Positions 1 to 53,989 are shown, numbered from the stretch's first letter. The stretch is 64,000 nucleotides of DNA from Flavobacterium sp. (GCA_043772535.1 JAYVGC010000063.1:4613-68612), one strand, 5' to 3'. Notes: generated from the letters alone by a model not told the origin. Numbers and translations: made by a program.

Positions 1-14
1 AAATTGACAATAAA

Positions 15-1712: not shown

Positions 1713-1812
1713 GAGCTAGGTATTATCTAGGTACTTCTAGATACATACCTCAAAAATACCCACAAATATACCTGCTTTCATTTGCCCTGTATAACATTAA
1801 AAAATACAGGAC

Positions 1813-2100: not shown

Positions 2101-2103
2101 GCT

Positions 2104-2391: not shown

Positions 2392-2404
2392 TCCAATTAA
2401 GCTG

Positions 2405-25614: not shown

Positions 25615-25656
25615 TAAAAACGCAATTGTACACAAAATAATTAAAATAAAGAGTCA

Positions 25657-25700
25657 AAATTAAACTGTCACAAATTAAACTGTCACAAATTAAAAATCAC
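25657..25700. repeat. about 3 tandem copies of a 15-nt unit 'aaattaaactgtcac' (third copy degenerate)
   Basis: Read directly from the sequence. It lies just downstream of the arsR stop, inside a 553-nt ORF-free spacer. Confidence 0.7.
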
Positions 25701-26167
25701 CGCAAAAATTCGAGCTTAATTCTACTCAATTAGCATGTAATATTGTAATTCCGTCGCATTTTTATGCTACTTAAATGATTTTCTTACTAATAACCTTAAG
25801 TAATTCTGAAAGCAATTATCGCAAAGAACGACAGTCATATTTCAACTTTAATTTTCAATCGATTGACGGCAACGATTAACCTAAATTAAAGAAATATACA
25901 TCGAAAAAATGGTGCAAAATTTAATGATGATTTTAATTATAAAATAGAAAGTAAAACTTATATGAGCTCAAGAGTAGGCACATTTGAACTACAATTTATA
26001 AAAATCAAATTTATTTTTTGTACTGAATAACTTGTATGGCTTAATAATCGTTCGAGTAGTATTTAATAAAAATAAAAAAAGCAATACCAATTTTAGTGAT
26101 CAATGACAAAAAAATCTTATAACGCACGTACTTTTTATTAACTAAAAAATCAAAAAAAAACTTCAAA

Positions 26168-26800
26168 ATGACAAAATCGCAATCAACCTTGTTTATAGAG
26201 ATAGAAAAAACAATAGAACAGTTAAAGTTTGAAGAAATTTCAGCAGCACGAAAAGCAATGTTGCAACCGCTAATAAAATTTATTCAATCAAAAGTAAATG
26301 AACAAAAAGAAATCAAACTCAATTTAATATGCACGCACAATTCGCGTAGAAGTCATTTAGCGCAAGTTTGGGCGCAGACTGCAGCAGCATATTTCAACCT
26401 AAAAAATGTTTTTTGCTATTCGGGCGGAACTCAAGTTACTGCACTTTTTTATATGGTTATAAAAACTTTAGTAAGACAAGGATTTCAAGTAAACGCAATT
26501 TCAGATGGCTGTAACCCTAATTACGCCATCAACTATTCTCAAAACGAACCTCCAATTATTGGTTTTTCTAAAAAATATAACGATGCTTTTAATCCACAAA
26601 GCGAATTTGCCGCAGTACTAACATGTTCGCAGGCTGATACCGATTGCCCTTTGGTTATTGGTGCCGAAAAACGAATTTCACTATCTTTTGAAGACCCAAA
26701 AGCCCATGACCACACAACTCAACAATCACAAAAATACCACGAAACCAGCCTGCAAATTGCTACTGAAATGTGGTATGTTTTTTCACAAATTAAACAATAA
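26168..26800 (+). CDS. arsC: arsenate reductase / low-molecular-weight protein-tyrosine-phosphatase family, with an N-terminal extension
   Basis: CX5R P-loop 'CTHNSRRS' and downstream Cys residues in '[11 protein letters not shown]'. It sits between arsR and acr3. Confidence 0.8.
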
Positions 26801-26802
26801 CT

Positions 26803-27879
26803 ATGGCAACAAATAACAGCAACCCCAAACTAAACAGAAAAAAGTTAGGTTTTCTTGATCGCTTTTTAACACTTTGGATATTTATTGCAATGGCAACAGG
26901 TATTTCCATAGGATACTTTATCCCGTCAAGCAGCGGCTTTATAAATTCATTTTCGAGCGGCACCACAAATATTCCGTTGGCCATCGGACTAATTTTAATG
27001 CTTTATCCGCCGCTAGCCAACGTAAAATATGAGCAAATGGGAACAATTTTTAAAAAACCAAAAATTCTAGGCGTTTCGTTGTTTTTAAATTGGATTGTTG
27101 GCCCTTTATTCATGTTTGCTTTGGCTGTACTGTTCCTAAAAGATACCCCTGAATACATGATAGGATTAATTTTGATCGGTTTAGCCCGATGCATCGCTAT
27201 GGTAGTTGTTTGGAACGATATCGCTCATGGAAACCGAGAATATGCAGCAGGCTTAATTGCCTTAAATAGTATTTTTCAGGTAGTACTTTATAGTGCTTAC
27301 GCCTACTTTTTTATCACAATACTACCCCCGTATTTTGGATTTAAAGGTGCATTAGTGTCAATTAGTGTGGTTGAAATTGCCAAAAGCGTCGGACTCTATT
27401 TAGGAATTCCGTTTGTACTTGGCATCATTACACGTTACTCATTGTTATATCTTAAAGGCGACGATTGGTACCAAAAAAAATATATTCCACTAATTTCGCC
27501 TTTAACATTACTTGCATTACTTTTTACAATACTTATTATGTTTAGTATCAAAGGCGAACTTATCGTTCAATTACCTATCGATGTGCTAAAAATTGCCTTG
27601 CCATTAGTTATCTATTTTACGGTAATGTTTGTTATTAGTTTTCTTGCAGGTATTTATTTTGGTGCAAATTATTCAACAACAACTGCAATCGCATTTACCG
27701 CAACAGGTAATAATTTTGAATTAGCCATTGCGGTTGCCATCGGTGTTTTTGGCATTAATAGCGGTCAGGCTTTTACAGGCGTAATTGGTCCTTTAGTGGA
27801 AGTGCCCGCACTAATTGCCTTAGTAAATGTTGCCTTTTGGTTCAAAAAAAAATATTATTACCCGCAAAAAAATAACTAA
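26803..27879 (+). CDS. acr3: ACR3-family arsenite efflux permease
   Basis: Has '[13 protein letters not shown]', '[13 protein letters not shown]' and about 10 TM helices. It starts 2 nt after arsC. Confidence 0.9.
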
Positions 27880-27923: not shown

Positions 27924-28040
27924 TTTGGGCGTTACCTGCTTGCTTCGTCCCTAGCAATGACAGGTCGGACTTTACGCTACACTCTTTTTTAAAGAAAAAA
28001 ACTTTAAAAAAGGAGTTTCACTGCAATTCCTAACGCAAAC
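27924..28040. repeat. intergenic REP-like palindromic element (copy 1 of 2 in the window)
   Basis: 'tttgggcgttacc...' then hairpin 'cttttttaaag-aaaaaaa-ctttaaaaaag', then 'gagtttcactgcaattcctaacgcaa'. The second copy at 53892-53989 has the same ends and core hairpin. Confidence 0.7.
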
Positions 28041-28115
28041 TAGGTTTTAACTCAAATATATTTATAAGTATTAAATATCTTTATTTTATATTTGCGTCAA
28101 TAAAATTATATTGTA

Positions 28116-31331: not shown

Positions 31332-31664
31332 TGTGTTTTTTTAGACTGTAAAAGTAGTGAAAAAGAAATCTATTCTTTGACGTTTTAATTTACTTTTAAA
31401 TTTAAAATACGGATGACGTTTATAAAAAATTGGTGGAATTTTAAATATAGAAACACCCTTAACTGTAAAAATAGGTATTGATTTTGGCAGTAGCGTTCAC
31501 TAAAATAGTATTTTACGGTCACAATAGTACCTGTTCATTAAATAAATAATAGCTCTAGTTACAGTATAAAAACTTTTAGTTGCCTTGCCTCTTAATTTTG
31601 CATATTTTGTTAAAAATGACTATTATTGTACTATCATAAAAAACGAATTACAAAAAATAAAAAA

Positions 31665-32240
31665 ATGGCAATCAACTTACAAAAAGGACAAAAAATAGAT
31701 ATTGGTTTATCAAAAATAACGGTTGGATTGGGCTGGGATCCAAATGAAGGCACCGGTCGCGATTTTGATTTGGATGCATCGGCAATTATGATTAATGCTG
31801 AACGTAAATTGCTGGGTGAAAATTATTTTATTTTTTATAATAATTTAAATTCTCCAGATGGCGCACTAGAGCATACCGGAGACGACCCAACAGGCGGCAA
31901 CAGTGACGGAGCAGACGATGAAGCAATAAAGGTTGATTTAACTAAAATTGACGCAAACGTGCAAGAAATACTTTTTGTTGTTACAATTGAAGATTTTGAA
32001 GCAAGAAAACAAAATTTTGGTCAAGTTAGAAATTCATATATCAGAATTGTTGACGATGCTACTGGCGAGGAGATTGCTAAATATGAATTGGACGAAGATT
32101 TTTCGATAGAAACTGGCGTAGAATTCGGTAGATTATACAGAAGAAATGGGCAGTGGAAATTTGAAGCATCAGGTATCGGATACAAAGCAGATTTAAGTTT
32201 TTTTCTAGAGAAATATTATTCAGGAGAAATTATAAAATAG
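31665..32240 (+). CDS. terD: TerD-family stress protein (paralog 1)
   Basis: Has 'MAINLQKGQK', 'GLGWDPN', 'DFDLDASAIM', 'HTGDDPTGGNSDGADDE' (Ca-binding DGDDE-like loop), 'GRLYRRNGQWKFEA'. The start was trimmed to the ATG at 31665. Confidence 0.9.
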   Translation: MAINLQKGQKIDIGLSKITVGLGWDPNEGTGRDFDLDASAIMINAERKLLGENYFIFYNNLNSPDGALEHTGDDPTGGNSDGADDEAIKVDLTKIDANVQEILFVVTIEDFEARKQNFGQVRNSYIRIVDDATGEEIAKYELDEDFSIETGVEFGRLYRRNGQWKFEASGIGYKADLSFFLEKYYSGEIIK

Positions 32241-32278
32241 GCTTTTAAACGACGATAAATAATCCTTAAAAATATCCT

Positions 32279-32944
32279 TTGAAACTAGATTATTCAAAAC
32301 ACCAGCATTTTTCGTTTGATTTATGGTTAACATTAATAAAATCGAATCCAGAATTTAAGAGTAAGAGAAATCTATTATTTAAAGATTTTTTTGAAATAAA
32401 CTGTTCAATTGATAAAGTTACAGAAACGGTGCGGTATTATGACGTTTTATGCAATGCCATAAATGAAAAAACAGGACTTAATATTGATACCAATGAGATT
32501 TATTATTTAATTTTGTATGCACTAAATGTAAACATCAATGAAATAAGTACAGCACAATTAAGTTTATTTTACAAGGCAGCAGAACTATTGTTTTTAGAAT
32601 ATAAACCGCAACTACTATATCCAAATATTAAAATAGTATTTGAGGAAATAGCCGCACAGCAAAAAACAATCAATATTTTAAGTAATACTGCGTTTATAAA
32701 AGGTACTACTTTAAGAAAAATTATTTCATATTATGAATTAAGTGATTATTTTAAATTTCAAATTTATTCGGACGAAGTTGGATTTTCAAAACCAAATCCA
32801 AAAATATTTGAAGTAGTATTTGACCAAATAAATAATATAAAACCAATACAAAAAAAACAAGTATTGCACATTGGTGACAATATTGTAGCCGATTATAATG
32901 GTGCACTTCGATTTGGATTTGACGCACATTTATTAAAAATATAA
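32279..32944 (+). CDS. HAD-superfamily hydrolase (Ter-associated)
   Basis: Motif I 'FSFDLWLTL' (Asp+2 replaced by Trp), 'GFSKPNPKIFE' (motif III Lys) and 'HIGDNIVADYNGA' (motif IV). TTG start. Confidence 0.75.
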   Translation: MKLDYSKHQHFSFDLWLTLIKSNPEFKSKRNLLFKDFFEINCSIDKVTETVRYYDVLCNAINEKTGLNIDTNEIYYLILYALNVNINEISTAQLSLFYKAAELLFLEYKPQLLYPNIKIVFEEIAAQQKTINILSNTAFIKGTTLRKIISYYELSDYFKFQIYSDEVGFSKPNPKIFEVVFDQINNIKPIQKKQVLHIGDNIVADYNGALRFGFDAHLLKI

Positions 32945-32948
32945 AACC

Positions 32949-33755
32949 GTGAAAAGTAGTTACAGTTTACATAAAATAATTAATGAAACCGAGTACCCGT
33001 TTGATGCAAACGAATACAGTTGGTTTAAATTTGGCGACAAGCACTATGCTGAAAAATTTGCAATAGAATTGTTTAACGGATTTATAGAAAAATACAGCGA
33101 CTTACTTTTATCAAGCAATGATATTGTAGTGCTTCCAAGTCCTTATTTATCAATTCCTACAGCGTCAAATTTTTTGTGCTTCTATTTTAAAAAGTGTTTA
33201 AATAGCTTTCTTTTTAAAAATAATAAAAAGGCAAGTATCGAATCTAAAATTTATCGAAACCAAACGTATGTTACCGATTACGGAAATTTAAATTTTGATG
33301 AAAGAGTACAACTAATAGCGAATGACACCTACTATATTGATCGAAATTTTATTAATGATAAATTGTGTATTTTTGTTGATGACATTAAAATTACAGGCAG
33401 TCATGAGCATACCGTCAATAAAATATTAGATCAATACGATGTCAATGGTAATTTTATATTTGTTTATTTTGCCGAATTAAGCAACAAAGAGATTCATCCA
33501 AAAATAGAAAACCATTATAATTATTTTGCTATTGAAAATTTAGACAGTATTATTGAGGTGGTTAACAGAAATAAATTTCAATTTAATACAAGAATCATAA
33601 AATACATATTAAACCTTGATGAAAAGCAGTTTACAGTATTAATAAATGCCATTTCGATTGAAAAACGCAACGATCTATTTCATTTAGCAATTAGTAATAA
33701 CTATCATCAAATTATTGAATATCAGAGTAACATTGAATCAATAAAAATCGTTTAA
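32949..33755 (+). CDS. phosphoribosyltransferase-like protein (Ter-associated PRTase)
   Basis: PRPP-binding loop 'LCIFVDDIKITGSHEHTV'. GTG start 4 nt after the HAD gene. Confidence 0.7.
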   Translation: MKSSYSLHKIINETEYPFDANEYSWFKFGDKHYAEKFAIELFNGFIEKYSDLLLSSNDIVVLPSPYLSIPTASNFLCFYFKKCLNSFLFKNNKKASIESKIYRNQTYVTDYGNLNFDERVQLIANDTYYIDRNFINDKLCIFVDDIKITGSHEHTVNKILDQYDVNGNFIFVYFAELSNKEIHPKIENHYNYFAIENLDSIIEVVNRNKFQFNTRIIKYILNLDEKQFTVLINAISIEKRNDLFHLAISNNYHQIIEYQSNIESIKIV

Positions 33756-34027
33756 GTCAGCAAACAAAAAAATTGAATCTTCAAACTTTTAATCGCATAG
33801 AAAAATGACATATACAACGCAGGATATAAAAAACTTACAGTTAAAAATTTGGTTTAATAAATCGCCAATGGAAAGATTACACCAGTTTACGACTGATAAT
33901 GAAGCACTAATTAATTTTTGAAAAGAAGTTAAATCTTCAGATTAAATTTTAAAAGTTATTTCTAGTAAAAATACAATTGACACTTCAAAAAATACTAATA
34001 GTTCAAAAACTAAAAAAAATTAAAATT

Positions 34028-34582
34028 ATGGCAATCAACTTACAAAAAGGGCAAAGAGAAAATATAAATGCTCCAAAATTTACAATTGGATTAGGATGGG
34101 ACACAAATAGTAGTGCAACAGGTTCAGGCTTTGATTTAGACGCCTCAGTATTTGTACTAGGCGAAAACAAAAAATTAATTTCAGATGCTCATTTTATATT
34201 TTATAACAACCTTAAATCGCCCGATGATGCCGTTATTCATACCGGAGATAATTTAACAGGCGACGGCGATGGTGATGACGAGCAAATTAAAATTGACTTA
34301 ACAAAAATAAATCCTGCTGTAAAAGAGATTTGTGTAGTTGTAACAATTCACGACAGCGAAGCCCGAAAACAAAATTTTGGTCAAGTTCGCAATTCATTTA
34401 TCAGAATTGTTGATGATAGCAATACCACCGAAATGGTTAAATATGAATTAGAGGAAGATTTTTCGATAGAAACAGCAGTTGAATTTGGAAGAATATACAA
34501 CAAAGACGGACAATGGAAATTTGAAGCGATTGGCGTTGGCATGAAAGGTGGACTTCAGGATTATTTAAATAAATATAACTAA
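34028..34582 (+). CDS. terD: TerD-family stress protein (paralog 2)
   Basis: Has 'MAINLQKGQRENINAPKFTIGLGWD', 'GFDLDASVFVL', 'HTGDNLTGDGDGDDEQIKIDL'. The start was trimmed to the ATG at 34028. Confidence 0.9.
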   Translation: MAINLQKGQRENINAPKFTIGLGWDTNSSATGSGFDLDASVFVLGENKKLISDAHFIFYNNLKSPDDAVIHTGDNLTGDGDGDDEQIKIDLTKINPAVKEICVVVTIHDSEARKQNFGQVRNSFIRIVDDSNTTEMVKYELEEDFSIETAVEFGRIYNKDGQWKFEAIGVGMKGGLQDYLNKYN

Positions 34583-34586
34583 AACT

Positions 34587-35195
34587 ATGGCAATTAATTT
34601 AGAAAAAGGGCAACGAATTAATCTTGAAAAAGGCAATGGAACTACCCTTCAAAACATTTGTGTGGGCGTAAATTGGGGTGCAATTGAAAAAAAGGGGCTT
34701 TTTGGCACTAAAAAAGAGCCCGTAGATTTGGATGCAAGCTGCGCTATTTATGACGACAAGAAAAATCATATTGATTCGGTAAATTTTAAAAAACTACAAT
34801 CAAATGATCAAGCCATAAAACATAGTGGCGATGATTTAACTGGTGATTTAGACGGCGATGACGGGCTAGATAACGAAGTAATTACCCTAGATTTTTCGAA
34901 ATTATCTCCTGCAGCAAGCCATGTTGCTTTTTTTATAAATAGCTTTAGAGGTCAAGATTTTAAAGACATTCCGTTTGCATCGATACGCATATACGAAGGA
35001 ACTCCTACTAAAGTGAACCAAGAATATGCACGCTATGATATTGCAAATGACGCTTCTTTTGCAGGTAACGTTTCGATGGTACTTGGGGTTTTTTATAAAA
35101 GAAACGAACAATGGAAGTTCAACGCCATTGGTGTTGCCACTAAAGATAAAAAACTAGAAGAAACAGTGATCACAATTCAAACAAATCATTTATAA
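34587..35195 (+). CDS. diverged TerD-domain protein (paralog 3, longer type)
   Basis: Has 'MAINLEKGQRINLEK', 'VGVNWGAIEKKGLFG', 'VDLDASCAIYD', 'HSGDDLTGDLDGDDGLDNEVITLD'. Confidence 0.85.
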   Translation: MAINLEKGQRINLEKGNGTTLQNICVGVNWGAIEKKGLFGTKKEPVDLDASCAIYDDKKNHIDSVNFKKLQSNDQAIKHSGDDLTGDLDGDDGLDNEVITLDFSKLSPAASHVAFFINSFRGQDFKDIPFASIRIYEGTPTKVNQEYARYDIANDASFAGNVSMVLGVFYKRNEQWKFNAIGVATKDKKLEETVITIQTNHL

Positions 35196-35202
35196 AAAAA
35201 GT

Positions 35203-36291
35203 ATGACAGATAATCAATTAGTTACTCAAGAAAATGTAGCATTGATTGATAAAAATGGAAATGTAAATTTAACATCTATTTCAGCAAGTGAAGTAGCTAA
35301 TTACAAATCGATTTCTAATCAGTTAAATGAAAACGATGCGAATTCAATTTTAAATTACGGTGCAGAAATTCAAAATGCAATTGCCAAACAAAGCGATACT
35401 TTTTTGACCAACGTACGAACTTATAATTCAGGAGAAGTTGGAACTTTGATAAATGATTTATTAACAGAATTAAATTATGTTGATGTAGACCAATTGGATC
35501 AAGGTCCTTTTAAACGATTTCTTTCTAAAATTCCACTAGTTAATAAACTGGTTGTTGATGTAAAAAAATTATTTCAACAATATGATAAAATTACTGTAAA
35601 TATTGATAAAATTAGCAATAAAGTTAAAGCAGGAATGATCAATTCTGCAAAAGACAACAGCGCATTACAAACTATGTTTGACGGCAACGTAGGATTGATA
35701 AAAGAAATGGAACAACACATTATTGGTGGTCAAATTCGATTTAAAGAATTGAGCGAAGAACTTGCCGTAATGGATACCAATACCACCCAGTACCAGGACT
35801 ATCAAATATCTGACAAAAGAAACTACATTAACCGACTAGACAAACGTTTAGCCGATATGAAAATTGTTCGCTTCATTATGTTACAGTCGTTGGCACAAAT
35901 TCGGGTGGTGCAAAACAACAACACCTCTATTGCCGAAAAAGCACAATCGATATTAACCACTACAATGCCCGTTTGGAAAAACCAACTTACATTGGCGGTT
36001 GCCTTGCAACGACAAAAGCAAAATATTGAAATTCAACGTAAAGTAGCCGAAACGACCAATACTATTTTACAAAAAAATGCCGAGATGCTTAAACAAAACA
36101 GCATTGAAGTTGCCAAAGAAAACGAAAATACAATTGTATCGCTTGAAACACTTAAAATAACAACAAAATCATTAATCGATACTTTAACAGAAGTAAAACA
36201 AATTCATGATCAAGGAACAGAAACCAGAAGACAACTTGATGCAGGATTGCACAGTCTTGAAAGCGAATTAAAAAAAGGAGTTATCAGTTAA
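35203..36291 (+). CDS. telA: TelA-family toxic anion resistance protein
   Basis: Has 'ILNYGAEIQNAIAKQSDTFLTNVRTYNSGEVGTLINDLLTEL' and long coiled-coil regions. 362 aa. Confidence 0.85.
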   Translation: MTDNQLVTQENVALIDKNGNVNLTSISASEVANYKSISNQLNENDANSILNYGAEIQNAIAKQSDTFLTNVRTYNSGEVGTLINDLLTELNYVDVDQLDQGPFKRFLSKIPLVNKLVVDVKKLFQQYDKITVNIDKISNKVKAGMINSAKDNSALQTMFDGNVGLIKEMEQHIIGGQIRFKELSEELAVMDTNTTQYQDYQISDKRNYINRLDKRLADMKIVRFIMLQSLAQIRVVQNNNTSIAEKAQSILTTTMPVWKNQLTLAVALQRQKQNIEIQRKVAETTNTILQKNAEMLKQNSIEVAKENENTIVSLETLKITTKSLIDTLTEVKQIHDQGTETRRQLDAGLHSLESELKKGVIS

Positions 36292-36314
36292 ACTGACCAA
36301 AGCAAGACCATTAC

Positions 36315-37280
36315 ATGACAGATGAAGAAGAACGATATGTTCAAATAATAAAGGAAAGTAATAAGAAGCTTGTGATTTTAGAATTGTTATCCAATTTTTT
36401 TAATCATAAACATCTTATTGGAACTTTAATAAAAACAAAAATTATTCATACTCTTTTTCAAAATAACAGCACTTTAGACATTAATAAGCTTGAATTATTT
36501 CATATTCAATTTACCAATAGTCTGCTTGATTTGTTTAAAAAACTTAAAAAATCAAAAGAGCAAAATTATCTTTTAATTTCTGATGAGATTTATATCAATA
36601 AGGATATTATTTCAAAGTTAAAAATTGAAATTGATGAAATTAATTTTTTTGACCAGATGCGAGTTCATTCACAAAAAATGTCTAAAAAAATAGAACAACT
36701 TTATAATATGTTGGTTACCGATAACCTATCACCTTTTAGTTGGGACGATGTGGTAAACCATTCCAAACAAATTCAATCAGAGTACTATCGAGAAATAAAT
36801 AGTAACCAATACGAGCAATTAACGCAATTAAATAAAAGTGTATATCAAAATACATTTGCTATATTTGAAAAAAAACTTTTAGGACGCTTAAATATTTTTA
36901 AGTTTAAAATTAAATTTTTGTGCGGATTAGTTTGCAATAATAATTGTATCGAAGTGTATGAGTTTCGGGATTCGAATGATAAATTTATATTTGTTGACAA
37001 TGATAAATCGTTCTATTTTTTGGAGCATGAAAGTGCAAAAGGAATTGATTTTTCAAAAAATTGTTCTACTAAAAATCAAATTGTAATGCAACTCGAATCG
37101 AAAAATGCAGACCTAAAAGTAGCACTCGGTCAGATAAAAACCAGCTTGCCTGCAACGGTAGAAGAGGTATTAAAAAATTATTTGGATAAAATTTCGTCAG
37201 TAGATTTTTTAGAAGATTTGCAAAATGTTGATGAACAAACAAATATTTTAAAAACAATGTTAAATATTAAAATTAACTAA
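36315..37280 (+). CDS. hypothetical protein (321 aa) embedded in the Ter cluster
   Basis: Same-strand ORF between telA and a TerD gene, ending 7 nt before the next start. Helical and K/N/E-rich. No motif recognised. Confidence 0.55.
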   Translation: MTDEEERYVQIIKESNKKLVILELLSNFFNHKHLIGTLIKTKIIHTLFQNNSTLDINKLELFHIQFTNSLLDLFKKLKKSKEQNYLLISDEIYINKDIISKLKIEIDEINFFDQMRVHSQKMSKKIEQLYNMLVTDNLSPFSWDDVVNHSKQIQSEYYREINSNQYEQLTQLNKSVYQNTFAIFEKKLLGRLNIFKFKIKFLCGLVCNNNCIEVYEFRDSNDKFIFVDNDKSFYFLEHESAKGIDFSKNCSTKNQIVMQLESKNADLKVALGQIKTSLPATVEEVLKNYLDKISSVDFLEDLQNVDEQTNILKTMLNIKIN

Positions 37281-37287
37281 ACATAAA

Positions 37288-37839
37288 ATGGCAATTAATT
37301 TAGAAAAAGGACAACGACAAAGCATTGATGCTCCAAAATTTACTGTGGGATTAGGCTGGGATAGCAATGCGAGCAGCACAGGAGAAGGATTTGACTTAGA
37401 TGCATCTGTTTTTTTAATTGGCACAAATGGTAAAATTCCAAACGACAATCATTTTGTGTATTACAATAATTTAAAATCGCCGGACGGTGCTGTACTTCAT
37501 ACTGGAGATAACCTGACTGGAGATGGTGATGGCGATGATGAAAAAATACAAATTGATTTGTCAAAAATAGATCCACAAGTAAATGAAATTTCGTTTGTAG
37601 TAACCATTCATCATGCCGATACAAGAAGGCAAAATTTTGGTCAAATTAGAAACTCGTTTATTAGAATTTTAGACCAATTAAATGTAGAATTAGTAAAATA
37701 CGAACTCGACGAAGATTTTTCGATAGAAACAGCAGTCGAATTTGGACGACTTTACAAAAGAAACAGCGAGTGGAAATTTGAAGCAGTTGGCATAGGCATG
37801 AAAGGTGGATTACAAGATTATTTAACCAAATATAATTAA
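37288..37839 (+). CDS. terD: TerD-family stress protein (paralog 4)
   Basis: Has 'MAINLEKGQRQSIDAPKFTVGLGWD', 'GFDLDASVFLI', 'HTGDNLTGDGDGDDEKIQIDL'. Very similar to paralog 2. Confidence 0.9.
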   Translation: MAINLEKGQRQSIDAPKFTVGLGWDSNASSTGEGFDLDASVFLIGTNGKIPNDNHFVYYNNLKSPDGAVLHTGDNLTGDGDGDDEKIQIDLSKIDPQVNEISFVVTIHHADTRRQNFGQIRNSFIRILDQLNVELVKYELDEDFSIETAVEFGRLYKRNSEWKFEAVGIGMKGGLQDYLTKYN

Positions 37840-37844
37840 AAAAT

Positions 37845-38504
37845 ATGGCCATAAATTTAACAAAAGGACAAAAAATTGATTTACGAAAATCAAGCGGCGA
37901 GACATTAACAAATTTTTGTGTAGGCGTAAACTGGGGAGCAATAGAAACAAAAGCATTCTTTGGATTATCAAAAAATATAAAAGACGTTGATTTGGATTTA
38001 AGTTGCATCCTAATTGACGACCAAAACAAGCTTTGCGATCATTTATATTCACCTTTATATCGAGTTGAAGTGTTGCAACAATTTGGTTTGCCAAAAGGTA
38101 AATTATTAACTTCAGATGGTGCTTTAAAACATACAGGCGATGATCTTGCTGGCGATAAAGGAGGCGACGATGGCTTGGATAATGAAATTATAACCGTAGA
38201 TTTGTCTAAGGTAGATGCAAAAGTTACCCAAATATTTTTCTTTTTGAACAATGCTGGAAACGAAGATTTTTCACAAATTCCGTATGCAAAAATCAGAATG
38301 TACGAAGGCACACCAACACGAGTAGTTTCAGAATTTGCGTCGTATAATGTTGCTGCTGATGCGCAATATATAAACAAACGATCCATTATTATGGGTAAAT
38401 TATACAAACGAAATAACGAATGGAAATTTAGCGCTATTGGTGATCCTACCGAAGATACTTTTTTAGGACAAACTATTCATAAAATTATTCAATCGTACTT
38501 GTAA
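37845..38504 (+). CDS. diverged TerD-domain protein (paralog 5, longer type)
   Basis: Has 'MAINLTKGQKIDLRK', 'VGVNWGAIETKAFFG', 'HTGDDLAGDKGGDDGLDNEIITVD'. Resembles paralog 3. Confidence 0.85.
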   Translation: MAINLTKGQKIDLRKSSGETLTNFCVGVNWGAIETKAFFGLSKNIKDVDLDLSCILIDDQNKLCDHLYSPLYRVEVLQQFGLPKGKLLTSDGALKHTGDDLAGDKGGDDGLDNEIITVDLSKVDAKVTQIFFFLNNAGNEDFSQIPYAKIRMYEGTPTRVVSEFASYNVAADAQYINKRSIIMGKLYKRNNEWKFSAIGDPTEDTFLGQTIHKIIQSYL

Positions 38505-38917
38505 TGGAAATTAAAAATATAAACGGACTTAGCGTTTCTGAAATAAAACAATTGGTGCAACAAGGAGGTAAATTTGTTCTGTTTCCCTACACCATTTCAT
38601 TTGTACTAATGACGCTCAAAAGAAATTCAAGTATCTATTTTATTCGACCAAACGAAGGGACTTTTAAATATTCGTATGGGTATGTTTTATTAAATTTACT
38701 TGTGGGCTGGTGGGGGATTCCGTGGGGTCCTATTTATACAATTGGTGCATTATACAACCATATCATTGGTGGTAAAGAGTATACGCAATTGGTTTTAAGC
38801 GAATTAATACAAAATGACCCACAAGCTAATACCAGTACCTATGGCATTAATGATATGATTACTGCAACTCAAGAAAACAGTAGCATCAAACCCGAAACGT
38901 ATACTATTCCATCCTAA
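38504..38917 (+). CDS. small putative membrane protein
   Basis: TAATG overlap with the upstream TerD gene. Two hydrophobic segments: 'FVLFPYTISFVLMTL' and 'YVLLNLLVGWWGIPWGPIYTIGALY'. Confidence 0.55.
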   Translation: MEIKNINGLSVSEIKQLVQQGGKFVLFPYTISFVLMTLKRNSSIYFIRPNEGTFKYSYGYVLLNLLVGWWGIPWGPIYTIGALYNHIIGGKEYTQLVLSELIQNDPQANTSTYGINDMITATQENSSIKPETYTIPS

Positions 38918-38932
38918 ATAAAAAATATTAAA

Positions 38933-39571
38933 ATGAGAAGACTACCTGTATATTTGCTATTAGACACGTCAGGATCAATGTCAGGCGAGCCAATTGAAGC
39001 TGTAAAAAATGGAGTTCAAATAATGATTAGTTCCTTACGCCAAAATCCACAAGCTATTGAAACAGCCTTTTTAAGTGTAATAACTTTTGATAGTACAGCA
39101 CAACAAATTATTCCGTTGACTGATTTAGCCTCTTTTCAAATGGTAGATATTAAAGCAACCGGAGTTACGGCTCTTGGCGAAGCTTTAAAATTAGTTGCTC
39201 ATAAAATTGATACCGAAGTTCAAAAAACAACTCCCGAACAAAAAGGAGATTGGAAACCTTTGGTTTTTATTATGACTGATGGTATTCCTACCGATGATTG
39301 GCAAAGTGGCTTAAATGAATTTAAAAAATCTAAAGTTGCCTTTACAGTTGCTTGTGCAGCAGGCAGTGGCGCTGATGCTAAAATTTTAAAACAAATTACC
39401 GATAATGTAGTGAGTTTAGATACTGCTGATAGTGCTAGTATTGGTAAATTCTTTCAATGGGTAACCGCTTCAATCGGCGTAAGTTCGACAAAAGTAGAAG
39501 ACTCTGGAAAAGAGGTTACGGGTTTAAAAGAACTCCCTCCTCCTCCATCGGAATTAAATATCGTAGTTTAA
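38933..39571 (+). CDS. TerY-like von Willebrand factor A (vWA) domain protein, paralog 1
   Basis: Has 'MRRLPVYLLLDTSGSMSGEPI' (MIDAS DxSxS), 'IMTDGIPTDDW', and a C-terminal 'ELPPPPSELNIVV'. Confidence 0.88.
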   Translation: MRRLPVYLLLDTSGSMSGEPIEAVKNGVQIMISSLRQNPQAIETAFLSVITFDSTAQQIIPLTDLASFQMVDIKATGVTALGEALKLVAHKIDTEVQKTTPEQKGDWKPLVFIMTDGIPTDDWQSGLNEFKKSKVAFTVACAAGSGADAKILKQITDNVVSLDTADSASIGKFFQWVTASIGVSSTKVEDSGKEVTGLKELPPPPSELNIVV

Positions 39572-39582
39572 AATAAAATAGT

Positions 39583-39741
39583 ATGGCAAAGTTTGGATTT
39601 TCATTTTCGTTAAATAGACTTTTAGGAATTACGGGTGCTAAACAAAGTTTTGCCCGAAAAACAGGAGTTCCAACTACTAAAGGTGGCGTTGAAAGAAAAT
39701 TGGGTAATTTCATAATTAAATCGTTATTCGGAAAAAAGTAA
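39583..39741 (+). CDS. small ORF (52 aa) not in the supplied track, between two vWA genes
   Basis: ATG at 39583, TAA at 39739-39741, and the next gene starts at 39743. The peptide is MAKFGFSFSLNRLLGITGAKQSFARKTGVPTTKGGVERKLGNFIIKSLFGKK. It is basic, and it fills the gap exactly. Confidence 0.45.
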   Translation: MAKFGFSFSLNRLLGITGAKQSFARKTGVPTTKGGVERKLGNFIIKSLFGKK

Positions 39742-39742
39742 C

Positions 39743-40378
39743 ATGAGACGACTACCAGTATATTTTTTATTAGATACATCGGGCTCTATGTATGGCGAAC
39801 CCATTCAAGCGTTAAATAATGCTTTGAGCGGTATGATTAACACTTTACGTTCCGATGCACAAGCACTAGATTCGCTCTGGATAAGCATCATAACCTTTGA
39901 TAGGGAAGTTAAAGAAATTGTTCCGTTAACAGAATTAGTTAGTTTTCAACTTCCAGAAATTACGTGTCCACAAAGCGGTCCTACAAATACTGGTGCTGGT
40001 TTAGAATTTGTTATTCAAAAAGTAAAAACGAATGTCATAAAAAGTTCATCAACCCAAAAAGGCGATTGGAAACCATTATTATTTGTATTTACCGACGGAA
40101 AACCATCTGACATACAGCTGTATAGACAAAAAATATCTGAAATTAAAAATTTAAATTTTGGAACTGTTGTTGGCTGTGCTGCCGGCCACATGGCAAATGA
40201 TGAAATACTTAAAGAACTAACAGATAATGTGGTTCATTTAGATTCTGCAGATAGTGCAACCCTTAAACAATTTTTTAAATGGGTTTCTGAAACAATTGAA
40301 CAGGGCAATAAAAGCCAAGGAACGGGCGAAAATACTCCATTACCGCCACCCCCAAGCGAAATAACTTTAATAATATGA
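39743..40378 (+). CDS. TerY-like vWA domain protein, paralog 2
   Basis: Has 'MRRLPVYFLLDTSGSMYGEPI', 'VFTDGKPSD', and a C-terminal 'PLPPPPSEITLII'. Confidence 0.88.
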   Translation: MRRLPVYFLLDTSGSMYGEPIQALNNALSGMINTLRSDAQALDSLWISIITFDREVKEIVPLTELVSFQLPEITCPQSGPTNTGAGLEFVIQKVKTNVIKSSSTQKGDWKPLLFVFTDGKPSDIQLYRQKISEIKNLNFGTVVGCAAGHMANDEILKELTDNVVHLDSADSATLKQFFKWVSETIEQGNKSQGTGENTPLPPPPSEITLII

Positions 40379-40629
40379 CAAAATTAATTCCAATTTTTAT
40401 AAATATCTTAATTGTAGGTTTGTTTTTATATTCAAAACTACTACCCTACAAAGACAAATTAAACCCGCAATACAAAAAGATTTTCGATTTTTTCAACAGT
40501 ATCTTTTCTCCAATCTTTAATTTTTTAAAAAATAGTATCAAACCTTTTCAGGTTGGTTTAGGATTGTCTGTTGATATGTCACAAATTGTGCTTTTAATTA
40601 TCTTTTTAATGCTTTTAAATTTTTTCTAG
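40375..40629 (+). CDS. small membrane protein, YggT-like
   Basis: ATGA overlap with the upstream vWA gene. 84 aa with two TM segments. 'FQVGLGLSVDMSQIVLLIIFLML' resembles the YggT repeat (by eye). Confidence 0.5.
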   Translation: MTKLIPIFINILIVGLFLYSKLLPYKDKLNPQYKKIFDFFNSIFSPIFNFLKNSIKPFQVGLGLSVDMSQIVLLIIFLMLLNFF

Positions 40630-40630
40630 T

Positions 40631-41683
40631 ATGCGAAGATTACCGATATATTTTTTAATAGACATTTCAGAATCAATGGTTGGCGAACCCATTCAACAAG
40701 TTGAAGAAGGTTTGGCAACAATTATTCAAACATTAAAAACAGATCCACACGCACTCGAAACTGTTTTTGTTTCTATTATTGTCTTTGCTGGTCAACCTAA
40801 AACTTTAGTGCCATTACAAGAAATAGTTAGTTTCTATCCTCCAAAATTCCCTATTGGTAGCGGAACCTCATTAAGCAAAGGTTTAGGGCATTTGATGCAC
40901 GAATTAAGAACTAATATTGTCAAAACCACTTATGAAATAAAAGGCGATTGGAAACCAATTGTATTTTTATTTACCGACGGTGTGCCAACAGATGACAGTA
41001 AAATAGCTATTAACGAGTGGAAGCAAAATTGGCAAAGTACCGCAAATTTAATTGCCGTTTCATTTGGTAATGATACAGATACAAAACTTTTAGGAGAATT
41101 AACAGATACTGTTTTAGAATTTAAAAACACCAATGTTCAATCCTATAAAGAATTTTTTAAATGGGTTACCGATTCCATAAAAACAAGCAGTATTAGCGTT
41201 GAAAGTAACGCAAACGGTTTTGAATTAGCAAAATTAGATGGGGAAACACTATCAAAAATTGATTTGACAAAAGCAACACCTAACCGCCAATTTGTAGATG
41301 ATAATTTTGTAGTGCTGAATGGTAAATGCCAAAATACCAAAAGACCTTATTTAATGAAATACCGTAAAATAATTGCACCGTCAATTTATGCAGGTATTGA
41401 ATTAGGTACAAAAAGCTACCGCTTAGTTGGAGCGTATCAAGTTGATACTTCTTACTTTGAATTGGCAGACAGTGCCACTTTTAGCAATAAAGTAAATACA
41501 GACGAATTAATTGGTGCTCCAACTTGTACGTGTTGTGGCAATCAAATTGCGTTTGCTGTTTGCAGTTGCGGTAAAATACATTGTATTGGTGATGAAGTAA
41601 TAAGCACTTGCCCATGGTGCGGCAATCAAGGAACTTATGGCAATGGTGCTGGAGGTTTTGACGTAAATAGAACACAAGGATAA
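40631..41683 (+). CDS. TerY-like vWA domain protein, paralog 3, with a C-terminal Cys-rich (zinc-ribbon-like) extension
   Basis: Has 'MRRLPIYFLIDISESMVGEPI', 'LFTDGVPTDD', and a C-terminal 'CTCCGNQIAFAVCSCGKIHCIGDEVISTCPWCGNQ'. Confidence 0.88.
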   Translation: MRRLPIYFLIDISESMVGEPIQQVEEGLATIIQTLKTDPHALETVFVSIIVFAGQPKTLVPLQEIVSFYPPKFPIGSGTSLSKGLGHLMHELRTNIVKTTYEIKGDWKPIVFLFTDGVPTDDSKIAINEWKQNWQSTANLIAVSFGNDTDTKLLGELTDTVLEFKNTNVQSYKEFFKWVTDSIKTSSISVESNANGFELAKLDGETLSKIDLTKATPNRQFVDDNFVVLNGKCQNTKRPYLMKYRKIIAPSIYAGIELGTKSYRLVGAYQVDTSYFELADSATFSNKVNTDELIGAPTCTCCGNQIAFAVCSCGKIHCIGDEVISTCPWCGNQGTYGNGAGGFDVNRTQG

Positions 41684-41686
41684 TTT

Positions 41687-43096
41687 ATGGAAGATGCAAA
41701 AAAATATATTCAAGCATTTTTATCACAAAACAAAATAGAAATTCCTTCAAAAAAACGGTCTCTTTTTGATGAATTTATTGCCAATGAAACAAATATAAAT
41801 TCCGTAAAAATAATTCAAGAAAATCAAAAAATGATTATGGCAAATTGGACCTTAAAAACTCGAATTGACGATATTATTTTACAAGCAGTATCATTACCAA
41901 ACGGCACTGTAAATAAAAAATATGAATCAAAAATTGATTTTATTAAATTGGGTTGGAATGATGTTATTTATTCAGAAATTAAGGGTTTAGAAGAAACAGG
42001 ACTTGAATTTGATAACGAAAAAGAATTGCTTTTTGGAAATCCGTTAATAAGTGGCGATTTAAAAATAAGATTGTTATTTCGAATTGAAGGAGAAGCAAAA
42101 GATTCTAAATTAAATGAAAAAACAATAACACTTATTATCAATCCAGATCCTAAATCATTATGGAAAGACATTGAAAGTGATAAAAATGATCCTTACTGGA
42201 AAGATGACAATGTTGCTATTTCTAATAAATTTTTAGATAAAAATATAGTAATAGCGTCAAAACGTGGAAGAAGTCACGCCAATGTGGGTTCTTTTAGAGA
42301 TGATGATTTTGCCTTCAAGAATATCAACGAAACTGGTTGGAGTGTGTTAGCCGTTTCAGATGGTGCAGGTTCGGCAAGTTTATCAAGACAAGGTTCTAAA
42401 ATGTCTTGTGATTTAGTACTATCCTATTTTGAAGAAAACTTTACTGACGAATATTTAAAAGAATTTGATGAAACATTATTGAATCATCACAATAAAACGG
42501 ATGAAGATTCTTCAAAAAAAATAAGTCACTTTGTTTATGATACTCTTTCAAAAGCAGCTTGGTTTGTTCATAAGGAATTAGAGAAATTTGCCATAAAATC
42601 AGAAAAACCGTTACGAGATTTTCACGCCACTTTGATTTTTGCTTTAGTCAAAAAATACGATTTTGGATATGCAATACTAACTTTTGGTGTTGGCGATTGC
42701 CCAATTGGATTATTAAATAAAGATGTAACCGAAATTAAATTAATGAATTGGTTGGATGTTGGAGATTTTGGTGGTGGAACTCGTTTTATTACAATGCCAG
42801 AAATATTCCAAAGTGATAAATTTTCAACACGATTTGGTTTTACATTGGTTGCTGATTTCTCTTATTTGATGTTGATGACAGATGGAATCTATGATCCAAA
42901 ATTTGTTGTAGAAGCTAATTTAGAAAAAATAGAAAAATGGAAAGAATTCATAGAAGATTTACAAGGGAAAAATGGTGATAGTTGTAAAGTTAATTTTACA
43001 AAAGAAAATGTAGCAATTGCAAATCAACTTTCTACTTGGATGGACTTTTGGAATCCGGGTAATCACGACGACCGAACTCTTGCAATAATCTATTAG
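41687..43096 (+). CDS. PP2C-family Ser/Thr protein phosphatase with an N-terminal extension (TerY-P triad phosphatase)
   Basis: Has 'SVLAVSDGAGSASLSRQGS', 'LMLMTDGIYD', 'NHDDRTLAII'. 469 aa. Confidence 0.82.
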   Translation: MEDAKKYIQAFLSQNKIEIPSKKRSLFDEFIANETNINSVKIIQENQKMIMANWTLKTRIDDIILQAVSLPNGTVNKKYESKIDFIKLGWNDVIYSEIKGLEETGLEFDNEKELLFGNPLISGDLKIRLLFRIEGEAKDSKLNEKTITLIINPDPKSLWKDIESDKNDPYWKDDNVAISNKFLDKNIVIASKRGRSHANVGSFRDDDFAFKNINETGWSVLAVSDGAGSASLSRQGSKMSCDLVLSYFEENFTDEYLKEFDETLLNHHNKTDEDSSKKISHFVYDTLSKAAWFVHKELEKFAIKSEKPLRDFHATLIFALVKKYDFGYAILTFGVGDCPIGLLNKDVTEIKLMNWLDVGDFGGGTRFITMPEIFQSDKFSTRFGFTLVADFSYLMLMTDGIYDPKFVVEANLEKIEKWKEFIEDLQGKNGDSCKVNFTKENVAIANQLSTWMDFWNPGNHDDRTLAIIY

Positions 43097-43099
43097 ACG

Positions 43100-44611
43100 A
43101 TGAAAACAATAACTGTAAAATCGATTAATAATACCTCAAAAACGTATCAGTTTGTAGATAATGGCGAACCTATGCGTGGCGGTGTAAAAGATGTATTTTT
43201 TAGTCCTGATAAAAAATATGTTGTAGCCATTTTTAGAGATAAATTAGACTTTAATCAAAAAGAAAGACTGCAAAAAATAACCAATTATTATTTACCCCAA
43301 ATTCAAACTAAAGAAGCAGGAGATTATTATTTAAACGAAGTGTTTCGTTGGCCAACAGATGTTATTGAGTATAATGGATTGACGGGAATAATTGTACCCA
43401 TCTATAATTCTAAATTTTTCTTTAAAAAAGGATATGAAACCAGTGATTTGATTCAAGGTAAAGAAAAAAATGGCAAATGGTTTGCAGGACCTAAATTCAG
43501 AAATCCTCAATTTCCCCTAAGGATTGCTAAATCAGAATTAGGTGATTGGTTGAGTTATTTTCAAGTTTGCGTTAATTTGACTCGTGGTGTCAAAAAAATG
43601 CACGCAATGGGATTGTCTCATTCTGATTTATCGTACAATAATGTTTTGATCGATCCTGTTGAAAAATCGGCATGCATGATTGATTTAGACGGATTAGTTG
43701 TACCTGGTTTGTTTCAAGCTGAAGTGATAGGTACCGCTGAATTTATAGCCCCAGAAGTACTTTCTACCAAACATTTAAGCAAAACAGACCCGAATAGAAA
43801 ACTACCAAACAGATTAACCGATTTACATGCGTTACCAGTACTTATTTACATGTTTCTTTTACATCGACATCCTTTAAAAGGAGGTAAAGTTCACGATTTA
43901 GATACTGAAAAAGATGATTTATTGTCAATGGGTGCGAAAGCAATGTTTATTGAACATCCAAAAGATGCAACCAATAGACCTAAATTAAACCAGGTTTCTA
44001 AATGGGACTTGCCTTGGGCTGATATTGCAAAACTTCCGTATTCTATTACTGGTCCGTATTTAAAAACATTGTTTGACAAAGTTTTTATCGACGGTTTGCA
44101 CAATCCAATGCAAAGACCCACTGCCGAAGAATGGGAAATAGGATTGCTAAAAACAACCGATTTAATGCAGAAATGCCACAATGTTTATTGTGAACAAAAA
44201 TGGTATGTTTTTGACAATACAAATACGCCTAAATGCCCATTTTGCGGTACAGCTCATAAAGGAACTTTACCAATTTTAGATTTATATTACCAATTTAAAG
44301 AATCGGTATGGAAACCTGAAAATCATAGACTGATGGTTTATGACAATCAATATTTGTTTCAATGGCATGTTAATAGGAATGTGAACAGAAACGAAAAAAC
44401 AACAGCCGACCAGAAAATTCCAGTTGGTTATTTCACATTTCATAATAATAAATGGGTTTTCGTAAATCAAAAATTAGCATCGATGAAAGATGTAACCGAA
44501 GATAAAGAAATTCCGATTGGTTCAATGGTAGCATTAACGGACGGTAAAAAACTTCTATTGTCAAAAGAAGATGGAGGACGAGTAGTAGTAATAACAATGG
44601 CAAATAAATAA
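43100..44611 (+). CDS. Ser/Thr protein kinase-like protein with a zinc ribbon and a C-terminal domain (TerY-P triad kinase)
   Basis: Catalytic loop 'GLSHSDLSYNNVLID', DFG-equivalent 'MIDLDGL', 'FIAPEV', and a zinc ribbon 'CHNVYCEQKWYVFDNTNTPKCPFCG'. Confidence 0.82.
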   Translation: MKTITVKSINNTSKTYQFVDNGEPMRGGVKDVFFSPDKKYVVAIFRDKLDFNQKERLQKITNYYLPQIQTKEAGDYYLNEVFRWPTDVIEYNGLTGIIVPIYNSKFFFKKGYETSDLIQGKEKNGKWFAGPKFRNPQFPLRIAKSELGDWLSYFQVCVNLTRGVKKMHAMGLSHSDLSYNNVLIDPVEKSACMIDLDGLVVPGLFQAEVIGTAEFIAPEVLSTKHLSKTDPNRKLPNRLTDLHALPVLIYMFLLHRHPLKGGKVHDLDTEKDDLLSMGAKAMFIEHPKDATNRPKLNQVSKWDLPWADIAKLPYSITGPYLKTLFDKVFIDGLHNPMQRPTAEEWEIGLLKTTDLMQKCHNVYCEQKWYVFDNTNTPKCPFCGTAHKGTLPILDLYYQFKESVWKPENHRLMVYDNQYLFQWHVNRNVNRNEKTTADQKIPVGYFTFHNNKWVFVNQKLASMKDVTEDKEIPIGSMVALTDGKKLLLSKEDGGRVVVITMANK

Positions 44612-44639
44612 AATAAAAATTAACTTTTAAATTAAACAA

Positions 44640-45641
44640 ATGAACAATCATCCAATTTTTTCAGAACATCCTTGGCTAATAGTCACTTTTGCAGTAGCCG
44701 TATTTATAATGTTAATTCTAGATTTAGGAGTTTTTAATAAAAAAAGCCATTCTGTAACCAACAAAGAAGCCGTTATTTGGTCTTGTGTTTGGATATCTTT
44801 AGCAATGATATTTAGTGGACTGGTTTATAATTTTGCTGGATCAGCTAAATTTTATGAATTTCAATCAGCCTATTGGATCGAAAAAGCACTTTCCGTCGAT
44901 AATTTATTTGTATTTATTTTAGTTTTTAAATTTTTTGATGTCGCCAACGAAAACAAACATAAAGTATTATTTTGGGGTATTGTAGGCGCCCTAGTTTTAC
45001 GTGCCTTATTTATTTTTTCTGGTGCCTATTTAATCGAATTAACCTACTTAAACAAACTACTTGGTCTTGCTGGCATTCAAGGTTTTAAATACGACATCAA
45101 CCTAATCATGACTGCTTTTGGTTTATTTTTAGTTTATGCAGGTATTAAATCATGGTCCGCAGGTGACGAAGACGATGACCAGGATTATAACGATACGAGA
45201 GGCGCAAAATTAATCCGTAAATTTTTTAACGTAAGTGATAAATACGTAGGCGATAAATTTTTTACAATCGAAAACGGTAAAAAATTAGCTACACCCTTGC
45301 TAGTTGTTGTAGCAGTAATTGAATTTACCGATTTGCTTTTTGCAGTAGATTCGATACCCGCAATTTTTGCCATATCAAATGATCCATTTATACTGTACAC
45401 CTCTAATATTTTTGCAATACTTGGTTTACGTGCCTTATTTTTTCTTTTGGATAATTTCATCCATTTATTTAGTAAACTAACGTATGGCTTGGCATTTATT
45501 CTTTCATTTATAGGTATTAAAATGATCATTTCGCCTTTCTACCATATTGATTCTGTCTACTCGCTTATTGTAATAGGTGGTATTTTAGTACTATCCGTGC
45601 TTGCATCTGTATTGTTTCCAACCAAAGAAGAGCAAGAATAG
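44640..45641 (+). CDS. terC: TerC-family integral membrane protein
   Basis: Has 'LSVDNLFVFILVF', 'ALVLRALFI', 'FAVDSIPAIFAIS', 'TSNIFAILGLRALFFLL'. Confidence 0.9.
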   Translation: MNNHPIFSEHPWLIVTFAVAVFIMLILDLGVFNKKSHSVTNKEAVIWSCVWISLAMIFSGLVYNFAGSAKFYEFQSAYWIEKALSVDNLFVFILVFKFFDVANENKHKVLFWGIVGALVLRALFIFSGAYLIELTYLNKLLGLAGIQGFKYDINLIMTAFGLFLVYAGIKSWSAGDEDDDQDYNDTRGAKLIRKFFNVSDKYVGDKFFTIENGKKLATPLLVVVAVIEFTDLLFAVDSIPAIFAISNDPFILYTSNIFAILGLRALFFLLDNFIHLFSKLTYGLAFILSFIGIKMIISPFYHIDSVYSLIVIGGILVLSVLASVLFPTKEEQE

Positions 45642-53891: not shown

Positions 53892-53989
53892 TTTGGGCGT
53901 TACCACAAGGGTCGCGCTTTTCATTACAATCTTTTTTAAAGCAAAAAAAGCTTTAAAAAAGTATTTTCATTGCAATCGCTAACGCAACC
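53892..53989. repeat. intergenic REP-like palindromic element (copy 2)
   Basis: 'tttgggcgttaccacaagggtcgcgcttttcattacaatc', then hairpin 'ttttttaaag-c-aaaaaaag?ctttaaaaaa', then 'gtattttcattgcaatcgctaacgcaacc'. Same family as 27924-28040. Confidence 0.7.

Follow-up and report, generated by a model that had tools for sequence, protein, structure and literature searches.

Whether an array of three vWA (von Willebrand factor type A) genes, interleaved with small open reading frames (ORFs) and followed by one phosphatase and one kinase gene, represents a more elaborate defence architecture or a known signalling module is the question raised by positions 38,933 to 44,611 of a 64,000-nucleotide stretch of Flavobacterium sp. 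DNA (GCA_043772535.1 JAYVGC010000063.1:4613-68612; this whole stretch is called the window in the following). An earlier reading of the sequence (the original prediction) had described the block as an expanded version of the TerY-P triad of vWA protein, PP2C phosphatase and Ser/Thr kinase. Here we find that the succession vWA, vWA, vWA with TerY_C domain, PP2C and kinase is the canonical ter-linked TerY-P module and thus of an already known kind. We assign a probability of about 85% to the reading that the block is a TerY-P signalling module, an ancient and fixed five-gene set at the 3' end of a ter operon on the Flavobacterium chromosome, the mechanism of which we infer. The three-vWA arrangement is the normal ancient form of ter-linked TerY-P and no new defence architecture, and the one fresh lead offered by this locus comes from the Bacteroidota-specific small genes and from their loss alongside TerY1.

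Three TerY proteins and their counterparts in Enterobacteria

The vWA proteins, named TerY1, TerY2 and TerY3 (TerY-C) in their order, are encoded on the plus strand at 38933-39571 (212 aa; Pfam VWA, E=7e-15), 39743-40378 (211 aa; VWA, E=3e-15) and 40631-41683 (350 aa; TerY_C, E=2e-49, and VWA, E=1e-12), and are followed on the same strand by a PP2C-family Ser/Thr phosphatase of 469 aa (41687-43096; PP2C_2, E=3e-27) and a eukaryote-like Ser/Thr kinase of 503 aa (43100-44611; Pkinase, E=1e-8). Linkage to core ter genes is present, with TerD paralogues and TerC on one strand within 14 kb, and the placement of a vWA/PP2C/kinase module inside a Ter locus, already made in the original prediction, proved right by the Pfam matches to VWA, PP2C_2, Pkinase and TerC. 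All three vWA proteins share a start of the type MRRLP...D-x-S-x-SM-x-GEPI (TerY1 MRRLPVYLLLDTSGSMSGEPI, TerY2 MRRLPVYFLLDTSGSMYGEPI, TerY3 MRRLPIYFLIDISESMVGEPI), and the first two end in an LPPPPSE(L/I) tail of the LPPPPSE-hydrophobic type (TerY1 ...LPPPPSELNIVV, TerY2 ...LPPPPSEITLII), both as quoted earlier. In TerY3 this tail is replaced by a Cys-rich C-terminal domain, also noticed before, which is TerY_C (PF15616, residues 223-350, model positions 1-129 of 129). The metal ion-dependent adhesion site (MIDAS) is intact, with D11, S13, S15, T79 and D116 (numbering of the window TerY1) being invariant in the three TerYs of the window and three from Klebsiella. Searching the PDB with the TerY3 sequence returned nothing meaningful.

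By alignment, TerY1 of the window is 66% identical to Klebsiella TerY1, compared with 47% to TerY2 and 39% to TerY3 of its own locus, and by tblastn and alignment the identities to the enterobacterial counterparts amount to 64-66% for TerY1, 48-49% for TerY2 and 41-45% for TerY3. Because each window TerY resembles its enterobacterial counterpart more than the neighbouring paralogues, the triplication is ancient, without local expansion. These comparisons make the TerY paralogues orthologous 1:1 across phyla and the three copies distinct conserved subunits, so that triplication, tail and TerY_C fusion are all older than the Bacteroidota/Enterobacteria split or transfer. The two Klebsiella tails read LPPPPPEVNVVL and LPPPPPEIQLVL, with LPPPP(S/P)E being common to both phyla. 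The Ser of the LPPPPSE tail was also considered as a phospho-acceptor, which is unlikely because Pro occupies that position in Klebsiella.

The same triplet is widespread on plasmids. A tblastn search of plasmids with TerY3 gave 2,320 records, nearly all enterobacterial and with three matching places each, and the kinase matches 2,338 plasmids. In Klebsiella pSGH10 and a Salmonella IncHI2 plasmid (loci L002 and L003) the order is VWA (212 aa), TerX, VWA (212 aa), TerY-C, PP2C and kinase, and in an mcr-1 plasmid the PP2C gene is broken by ISApl1. The region has been named terY3Y2XY1W-ZABCDEF (PMC6885840) and terY-CYXYW-ZABCDEF (PMC12054061). The enterobacterial ter cluster (IncHI2 R478 type and Klebsiella pneumoniae virulence plasmids) thus has the same five proteins as the window, in the same order and on a single strand, and is like it in the MRRLP...DxSxS N-terminus, the LPPPPxE tails on Y1 and Y2, the TerY_C domain on Y3 and the linkage to TerD and TerC. 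It differs in carrying TerX, a TerD paralogue seen in L001-L003, between Y1 and Y2, where the window has only the small gene s52, and 88-95 bp between Y2 and Y3, where the window has the small gene s84. Furthermore, the enterobacterial cluster has TerW, TerB and ATP-grasp/StiP/HpcH genes, in place of which the window has TelA, a 321-aa protein, HAD and PRTase_3, and it lies on plasmids, whereas the Flavobacterium locus is chromosomal. Identity to the enterobacterial ter proteins is 29-30% for PP2C and 50-52%, across 97-99% of the length, for the kinase. With this five-gene order found on ~2,300 enterobacterial plasmids and with 1:1 orthology of the TerYs, the idea of a more elaborate expansion of a minimal triad had to be given up.

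In Bacteroidota, the module was found in 80 genome loci. The nearest relatives are Flavobacterium genomes, in which TerY3 is 86-92% identical, followed by Aquimarina, Chitinophagaceae, Algoriphagus, Spirosoma, Saprospira and others (72-82%), and the whole operon arrangement is syntenic over dozens of Flavobacterium species. Gene content was compared in 70 Bacteroidota loci with enough upstream sequence, all of which were ascertained via TerY3. The automated count yielded 56 three-vWA and 14 two-vWA loci, the latter including L079, where TerY1 is split; with L079 counted in, TerY1 is present in 57/70 loci, and the remaining 13 hold TerY2 and TerY3 only (L027, L029, L030, L034, L045-L047, L049, L053, L060, L071, L073 and L075). 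TerY2 and TerY3 are in every locus examined, and PP2C and kinase persist where TerY1 is absent. In L079 itself, TerY1 is spread over two frames at 8090-8726 (residues 1-94 and 95-212), which points to a frameshift pseudogene or else to an error of assembly.

Small genes between the TerY genes and the joint loss of TerY1 and s84

The gene s52 (39583-39741, +), recognised by its conservation and its ratio of nonsynonymous to synonymous substitution rates (dN/dS), encodes a 52-aa protein that is basic as described before, with a net charge of +10, and follows the consensus MGKFGFSFSWKRxLGITxAKQxFARxTGxPTxKxGxERKxG... across Bacteroidota classes. A profile search gave 7,693 clusters at E<=1e-3 (counted at 90% identity), all of which carry the label 'hypothetical' and lack Pfam domains, and Pfam scans of 14 s52 members were likewise without a match. 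In all contexts read, s52 sits between TerY1 and TerY2. AlphaFold2 (AF2) predicts a helical hairpin with a predicted local distance difference test (pLDDT) value of 78, and this model had no fold match in the PDB. A relation to DUF4236 of the enterobacterial ter cluster was rejected (hhalign probability 0.2%). Among the Bacteroidota loci scored three-vWA, s52 was detected in 17/56 and undetected in 39/56, and in the F. johnsoniae group it is replaced by a spacer of ~160 bp without an ORF. Overall, s52 accompanies the TerY1-TerY2 pair as an accessory gene that can be dispensed with.

The second small gene, s84 (40375-40629, +; 84 aa), had been described as encoding a YggT-like membrane protein, in agreement with two transmembrane segments (residues 1-25 and 58-84; Kyte-Doolittle windows >1.6) and with its orthologues, 21/24 of which match Pfam YGGT at E<=1, the best at 2e-6. 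The window protein itself matches weakly (E=5e-4, 20.9 bits, under the 27-bit cut-off), and some orthologues are named 'YggT family protein' in NCBI and UniRef or come with a precomputed PF02325 match. Orthologues are 54-92% identical and form 1,038 clusters in public data. Compared with the YggT/Ycf19 family (PF02325), s84 is alike in small size, two transmembrane segments and mostly weak YGGT matches, and differs in that the copy of the window remains sub-threshold and lies in a TerY array. The usual neighbourhood of yggT/ylmG consists of cell-division or proline-synthesis genes.

Both ORFs are short and the window has a GC content of ~32%, and s52 in addition lacks a family match and is missing from many relatives, which taken together might point to chance ORFs in AT-rich spacers. 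This explanation is, however, extremely improbable, considering that length and sequence of s52 and s84 are kept across Flavobacteriia, Chitinophagia and Cytophagia, that dN/dS lies at 0.03-0.25 for s52 and 0.05-0.27 for s84 despite synonymous sites close to saturation, that public data hold thousands of clusters of the former and more than a thousand of the latter, and that the spacer is free of ORFs wherever s52 has been lost. On the basis of this conservation, s52 and s84 are real but accessory genes. Dispensability within the array was accordingly seen in part: s52 and s84 are absent from all enterobacterial loci, s52 is undetected in more than half of the three-vWA loci of Bacteroidota, and TerY1 is absent in 13 of the 70 loci, with PP2C and kinase kept.

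The losses of s84 and TerY1 go together. None of the 13 TerY1-less loci carries an intact s84, with decayed remnants being left in L030 and L034, and s84 without TerY1 occurs in 0 loci of 70. The reverse combination, TerY1 without s84, exists in five Bacteroidota loci and in all enterobacterial loci. On neighbour-joining trees of TerY3 plus kinase and of TerY2, the joint losses of TerY1 and s84 fall in at least six separate places, which speaks against one loss in a common ancestor as well as against a segment swap that happened only once. Moreover, full-length TerY2 is kept between TerY1 and s84, and therefore two deletions recurred jointly. An exchange of a single segment 'allele' was also tried as the cause of the co-loss and rejected, as the TerY2 proteins of two-vWA loci are scattered among those of three-vWA loci; the s84 remnants in L030 and L034 contradict it as well. 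The recurrent joint loss suggests that s84 depends functionally on TerY1, a correlative link drawn from neighbour-joining trees and TerY3-ascertained loci. Going one step further, s84 and perhaps s52 might be dedicated partners of TerY1, with s84 being a tether or receptor that places TerY1 at the Ter membrane complex; we put this forward tentatively and at somewhat below even odds. If it is true, the TerY1-s84 partnership would for the first time set TerY paralogues apart in function, and s52 would represent a large unnamed family of ter-specific small proteins.

The spacers between the TerY genes also accommodate other genes. A Macro-domain protein of ~169 aa (PF01661, E=4e-37) lies beside s84 in the TerY2-TerY3 gap of seven loci (L005, L010, L032, L056, L058, L068 and L070), which may link the module to ADP-ribose or else to the nucleoside-like metabolite predicted for Ter systems. 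Further insertions were seen in the TerY2-TerY3 gap (L055 and L063) and in the TerY1-TerY2 gap (L009, L037, L068 and L070; L056, L057 and L064); they comprise AIM24 (E=8e-27), an RDD-family membrane protein (E=2e-15, tested in L009 only), small membrane proteins of the GxxxG type and a 126-aa acidic 'DGxID' repeat protein without a Pfam match. In Enterobacteria the TerY1-TerY2 spacer is occupied by a TerD paralogue. Between TerY2 and s84, a conserved protein of ~155 aa, also without a Pfam match, is present in L011-L015 and other loci of the F. johnsoniae group and absent from the window. Accessory genes are thus interchangeable around a conserved scaffold, the TerY array, the spacers of which are insertion hot spots, and these insertions hint at interaction partners of the TerY module.

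Phosphatase, kinase and the proposed signalling mechanism

In the phosphatase, the PP2C_2 domain comprises residues 193-424 and is preceded by an N-terminal extension of ~190 aa without a family match. The kinase scores 35.2 bits against the Pkinase model (gathering score 31.7), and among 22 homologues the motifs H174-x-D176...N181 and D195-x-D197-G198 are invariant. A search of the PDB by sequence returned generic kinase cores only. Its C-terminal 148 aa are without any Pfam domain, an OB fold included, and contain four invariant Cys (C359, C364, C379 and C382) in the pattern CxxxxC...CxxC, followed by a beta-rich tail. This pattern fits a zinc ribbon in a part of the kinase that has no Pfam match and is poorly modelled by AF2. 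An FHA-like C-terminus, also considered, was dropped for want of a Pfam match.

The TerY-P triad has been described as vWA, PP2C and a kinase fused to a zinc ribbon, and as a predicted metal-sensing phosphorylation switch, in the account of PMC10542128, which cites Anantharaman 2012. As summarised there and in PMC4978471, vWA, PP2C and kinase adjoin each other as they do in the window, and depictions of the triad usually show a single TerY, in contrast to the three fixed paralogues found here, one of which carries TerY_C. The ter operon is inducible by Zn(II) and Mn(II), and phage resistance is influenced by terC (PMC12054061). The model that we propose follows the published prediction of metal binding by TerY and a phosphorylation switch, as far as it is set out in PMC10542128 and PMC12054061. 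In this model, three non-redundant TerYs would bind a divalent metal or a metal-bridged partner via their MIDAS, and TerY3 possibly also via its Cys cluster. The TerYs would then assemble with the membrane-linked Ter complex of TerC, TerD paralogues and TelA, in which s84 most likely works with TerY1, e.g., by tethering it to the membrane; the polyproline-hydrophobic tails of TerY1 and TerY2 may serve as docking peptides. Kinase and PP2C would reversibly phosphorylate some component of this assembly, and this phosphorylation might switch the response to metals or oxyanions, possibly also to phage or colicin. The view put forward earlier for the locus, in which the kinase/phosphatase pair reads a vWA array associated with the membrane, is a reasonable hypothesis and agrees with the published one.

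Several observations weigh against this overall reading. The link between TerY1 and s84 is a correlation across the 70 loci, and TerY1 works without any s84 in Enterobacteria. The literature searched yielded no experimental work on the TerY, PP2C or kinase proteins of any ter operon, and the mechanism is therefore built on domain logic. For the kinase, the AF2 model is too poor (mean pLDDT 57.8, with 22 close homologues) for its C-terminal domain to be identified, and the kinase reads VVAIF (residues 40-48) at the site of the canonical beta-3 Lys (VAIK). As VAIF replaces VAIK, kinase activity is assumed; K30 and K48 are both invariant among the 22 homologues and could stand in for the beta-3 Lys, as in WNK-type kinases.

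Two other explanations of the array have to be weighed against an ancient ter-linked module. The three vWA genes might stem from one TerY that expanded recently and in this lineage only, with partly redundant copies, as the N-termini of the three copies and the tails of two are very alike and as the loss of TerY1 in 13/70 Bacteroidota loci could suggest redundancy. We consider this highly improbable, because TerY1 is far closer to its enterobacterial counterpart (66%) than to its paralogues (47% and 39%), the MIDAS residues are kept in all three proteins, TerY2 and TerY3 occur in every locus examined, and the same triplet is found on >2,300 plasmids. Somewhat less remote, yet still improbable, is a stand-alone anti-phage TerY-P system of the kind reported by Gao et al. 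2020, enlarged by extra vWA sensors and located beside ter genes by chance. The system of Gao et al. has the same three domain types in one operon as the window, and protection against T7-like and Autographiviridae phages is known for vWA/PP2C/kinase triads (PMC7699616; bioRxiv 10.1101/2022.08.12.503731). Ter loci are themselves known to affect phage sensitivity (PMC12054061): according to the account given there, which cites Whelan 1995, the IncHI2 ter region inhibits phage and a terC mutant is more phage-sensitive. In addition, some compact Bacteroidota cassettes adjoin integrase genes.

Against a stand-alone defence system stand the kinase, the database searches and the genomic context. The TerY-P kinase of the ter/CoCoNuT type is fused to a zinc ribbon and the stand-alone defence kinase of Gao et al. 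to a C-terminal OB fold (PMC10542128), and the window kinase has a four-Cys motif that fits the former type. In PADLOC scans at E<=0.01 and at E<=10, none of the three vWA proteins nor PP2C gave a match, the library being unconfirmed to include TerY-P models, and the kinase gave only weak generic matches to PD-T4-6, MkoA and mad6, none of them to a TerY-P family. Unlike the system of Gao et al., the module has three vWA genes and sits inside a ter operon, in one transcriptional direction with TerD, TelA and TerC and syntenic in dozens of Flavobacterium species, and the flanks of this operon in the window consist of an ABC transporter and capsule genes, with no defence genes among them. Because of the PADLOC result and the Cys motif of the kinase, the module is filed under ter-linked TerY-P instead of the defence system, and the defence framing of the original prediction was not supported by PADLOC. 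The module may still contribute to phage tolerance, given the effect of ter loci on phage sensitivity. Within the ter-linked reading, the Bacteroidota loci with and without TerY1, s84 and s52 represent a natural deletion series which could help to assign roles to the individual TerY paralogues, also for the clinically important Klebsiella and IncHI2 plasmids.

The surrounding ter operon and its neighbourhood

The TerY block lies near the 3' end of a 14-kb chromosomal ter operon (31626-45641) with the order TerD, HAD hydrolase, PRTase_3, TerD, TerD, TelA, 321-aa protein, TerD, TerD, 137-aa protein, TerY block and TerC, in which the ORF series from 38504 to 45641 is continuous and entirely on the plus strand according to the ORF table. 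Gene junctions are tight, with an ATGA overlap between TerY2 and s84, 1-nt gaps between s52 and TerY2 and between s84 and TerY3, and the PP2C start 4 nt past the TerY3 stop codon. The operon begins with a TerD paralogue (31626-32240, +; Pfam TerD, E=1e-69), followed by a HAD-family hydrolase of the Ter-associated metabolite module (32279-32944, +; Hydrolase, E=6e-11, and HAD_2, E=2e-9), the synteny of which is kept in relatives, and by a ComF-like phosphoribosyltransferase (PRTase_3; 32949-33755, +; PF15610, E=7e-86). A pair of TerD paralogues (33977-35195, +, with genes at 33977-34582 and 34587-35195; E=1e-72 and 1e-33) precedes TelA (35203-36291, +; E=2e-89), and a second pair (37288-38504, +, with genes at 37288-37839 and 37845-38504; E=2e-71 and 2e-30) follows the 321-aa protein (36315-37280, +). 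The latter, located directly 3' of TelA, is without an assigned family and without a match in Pfam, NCBIfam and PADLOC; in related ter loci it is kept at 46-78% identity, always adjoining TelA.

Immediately upstream of the TerY block, the conserved 137-aa protein (38504-38917, +) has no family match and is 48-77% identical in relatives. It had been called a membrane protein, of which the ORF and its conservation were found as described; its membrane nature is plausible from the sequence, with two moderately hydrophobic W/G-rich segments whose hydropathy is under the usual threshold for transmembrane segments. The last gene of the operon, directly after the block as previously noted, encodes a TerC/Alx-family membrane protein (44640-45641, +; Pfam TerC, E=3e-47; NCBIfam TIGR03718, E=3e-103, above cut-off). 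This was the only NCBIfam model to pass its cut-off, with none being informative for the TerYs, PP2C and kinase, and no TerB- or TerW-like match was obtained among the 18 proteins scanned from 31626 to 45641. Rfam gave no riboswitch or other RNA within the ter operon, including the region upstream of TerC, and the counts of promoters and terminators were no different from those of shuffled sequence, with a consensus that is unsuited to Bacteroidota.

A short form of the locus is represented by the compact cassettes L084 and L085, with the order TerD-TerD-TerY1-125 aa-s52-TerY2-TerY3-PP2C-kinase-TerC. These cassettes adjoin tyrosine recombinase and Bro-N genes (1-3100, 11970-12168), suggesting that the short form is mobile. 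Elsewhere in the window, a probable arsenic-resistance cluster (25291-27879, +) lies some 4 kb upstream of the ter operon, where a 210-aa ORF without a Pfam match is flanked by genes for an ArsR-family regulator (HTH_5, E=3e-9) and for an SBF/ACR3-type permease (E=4e-55). Finally, the Flavo-1 RNA motif (RF01705) occurs twice on the minus strand, at 27959-28045 and 53906-53988, with 59.7 and 56 bits, respectively, both above the gathering score.

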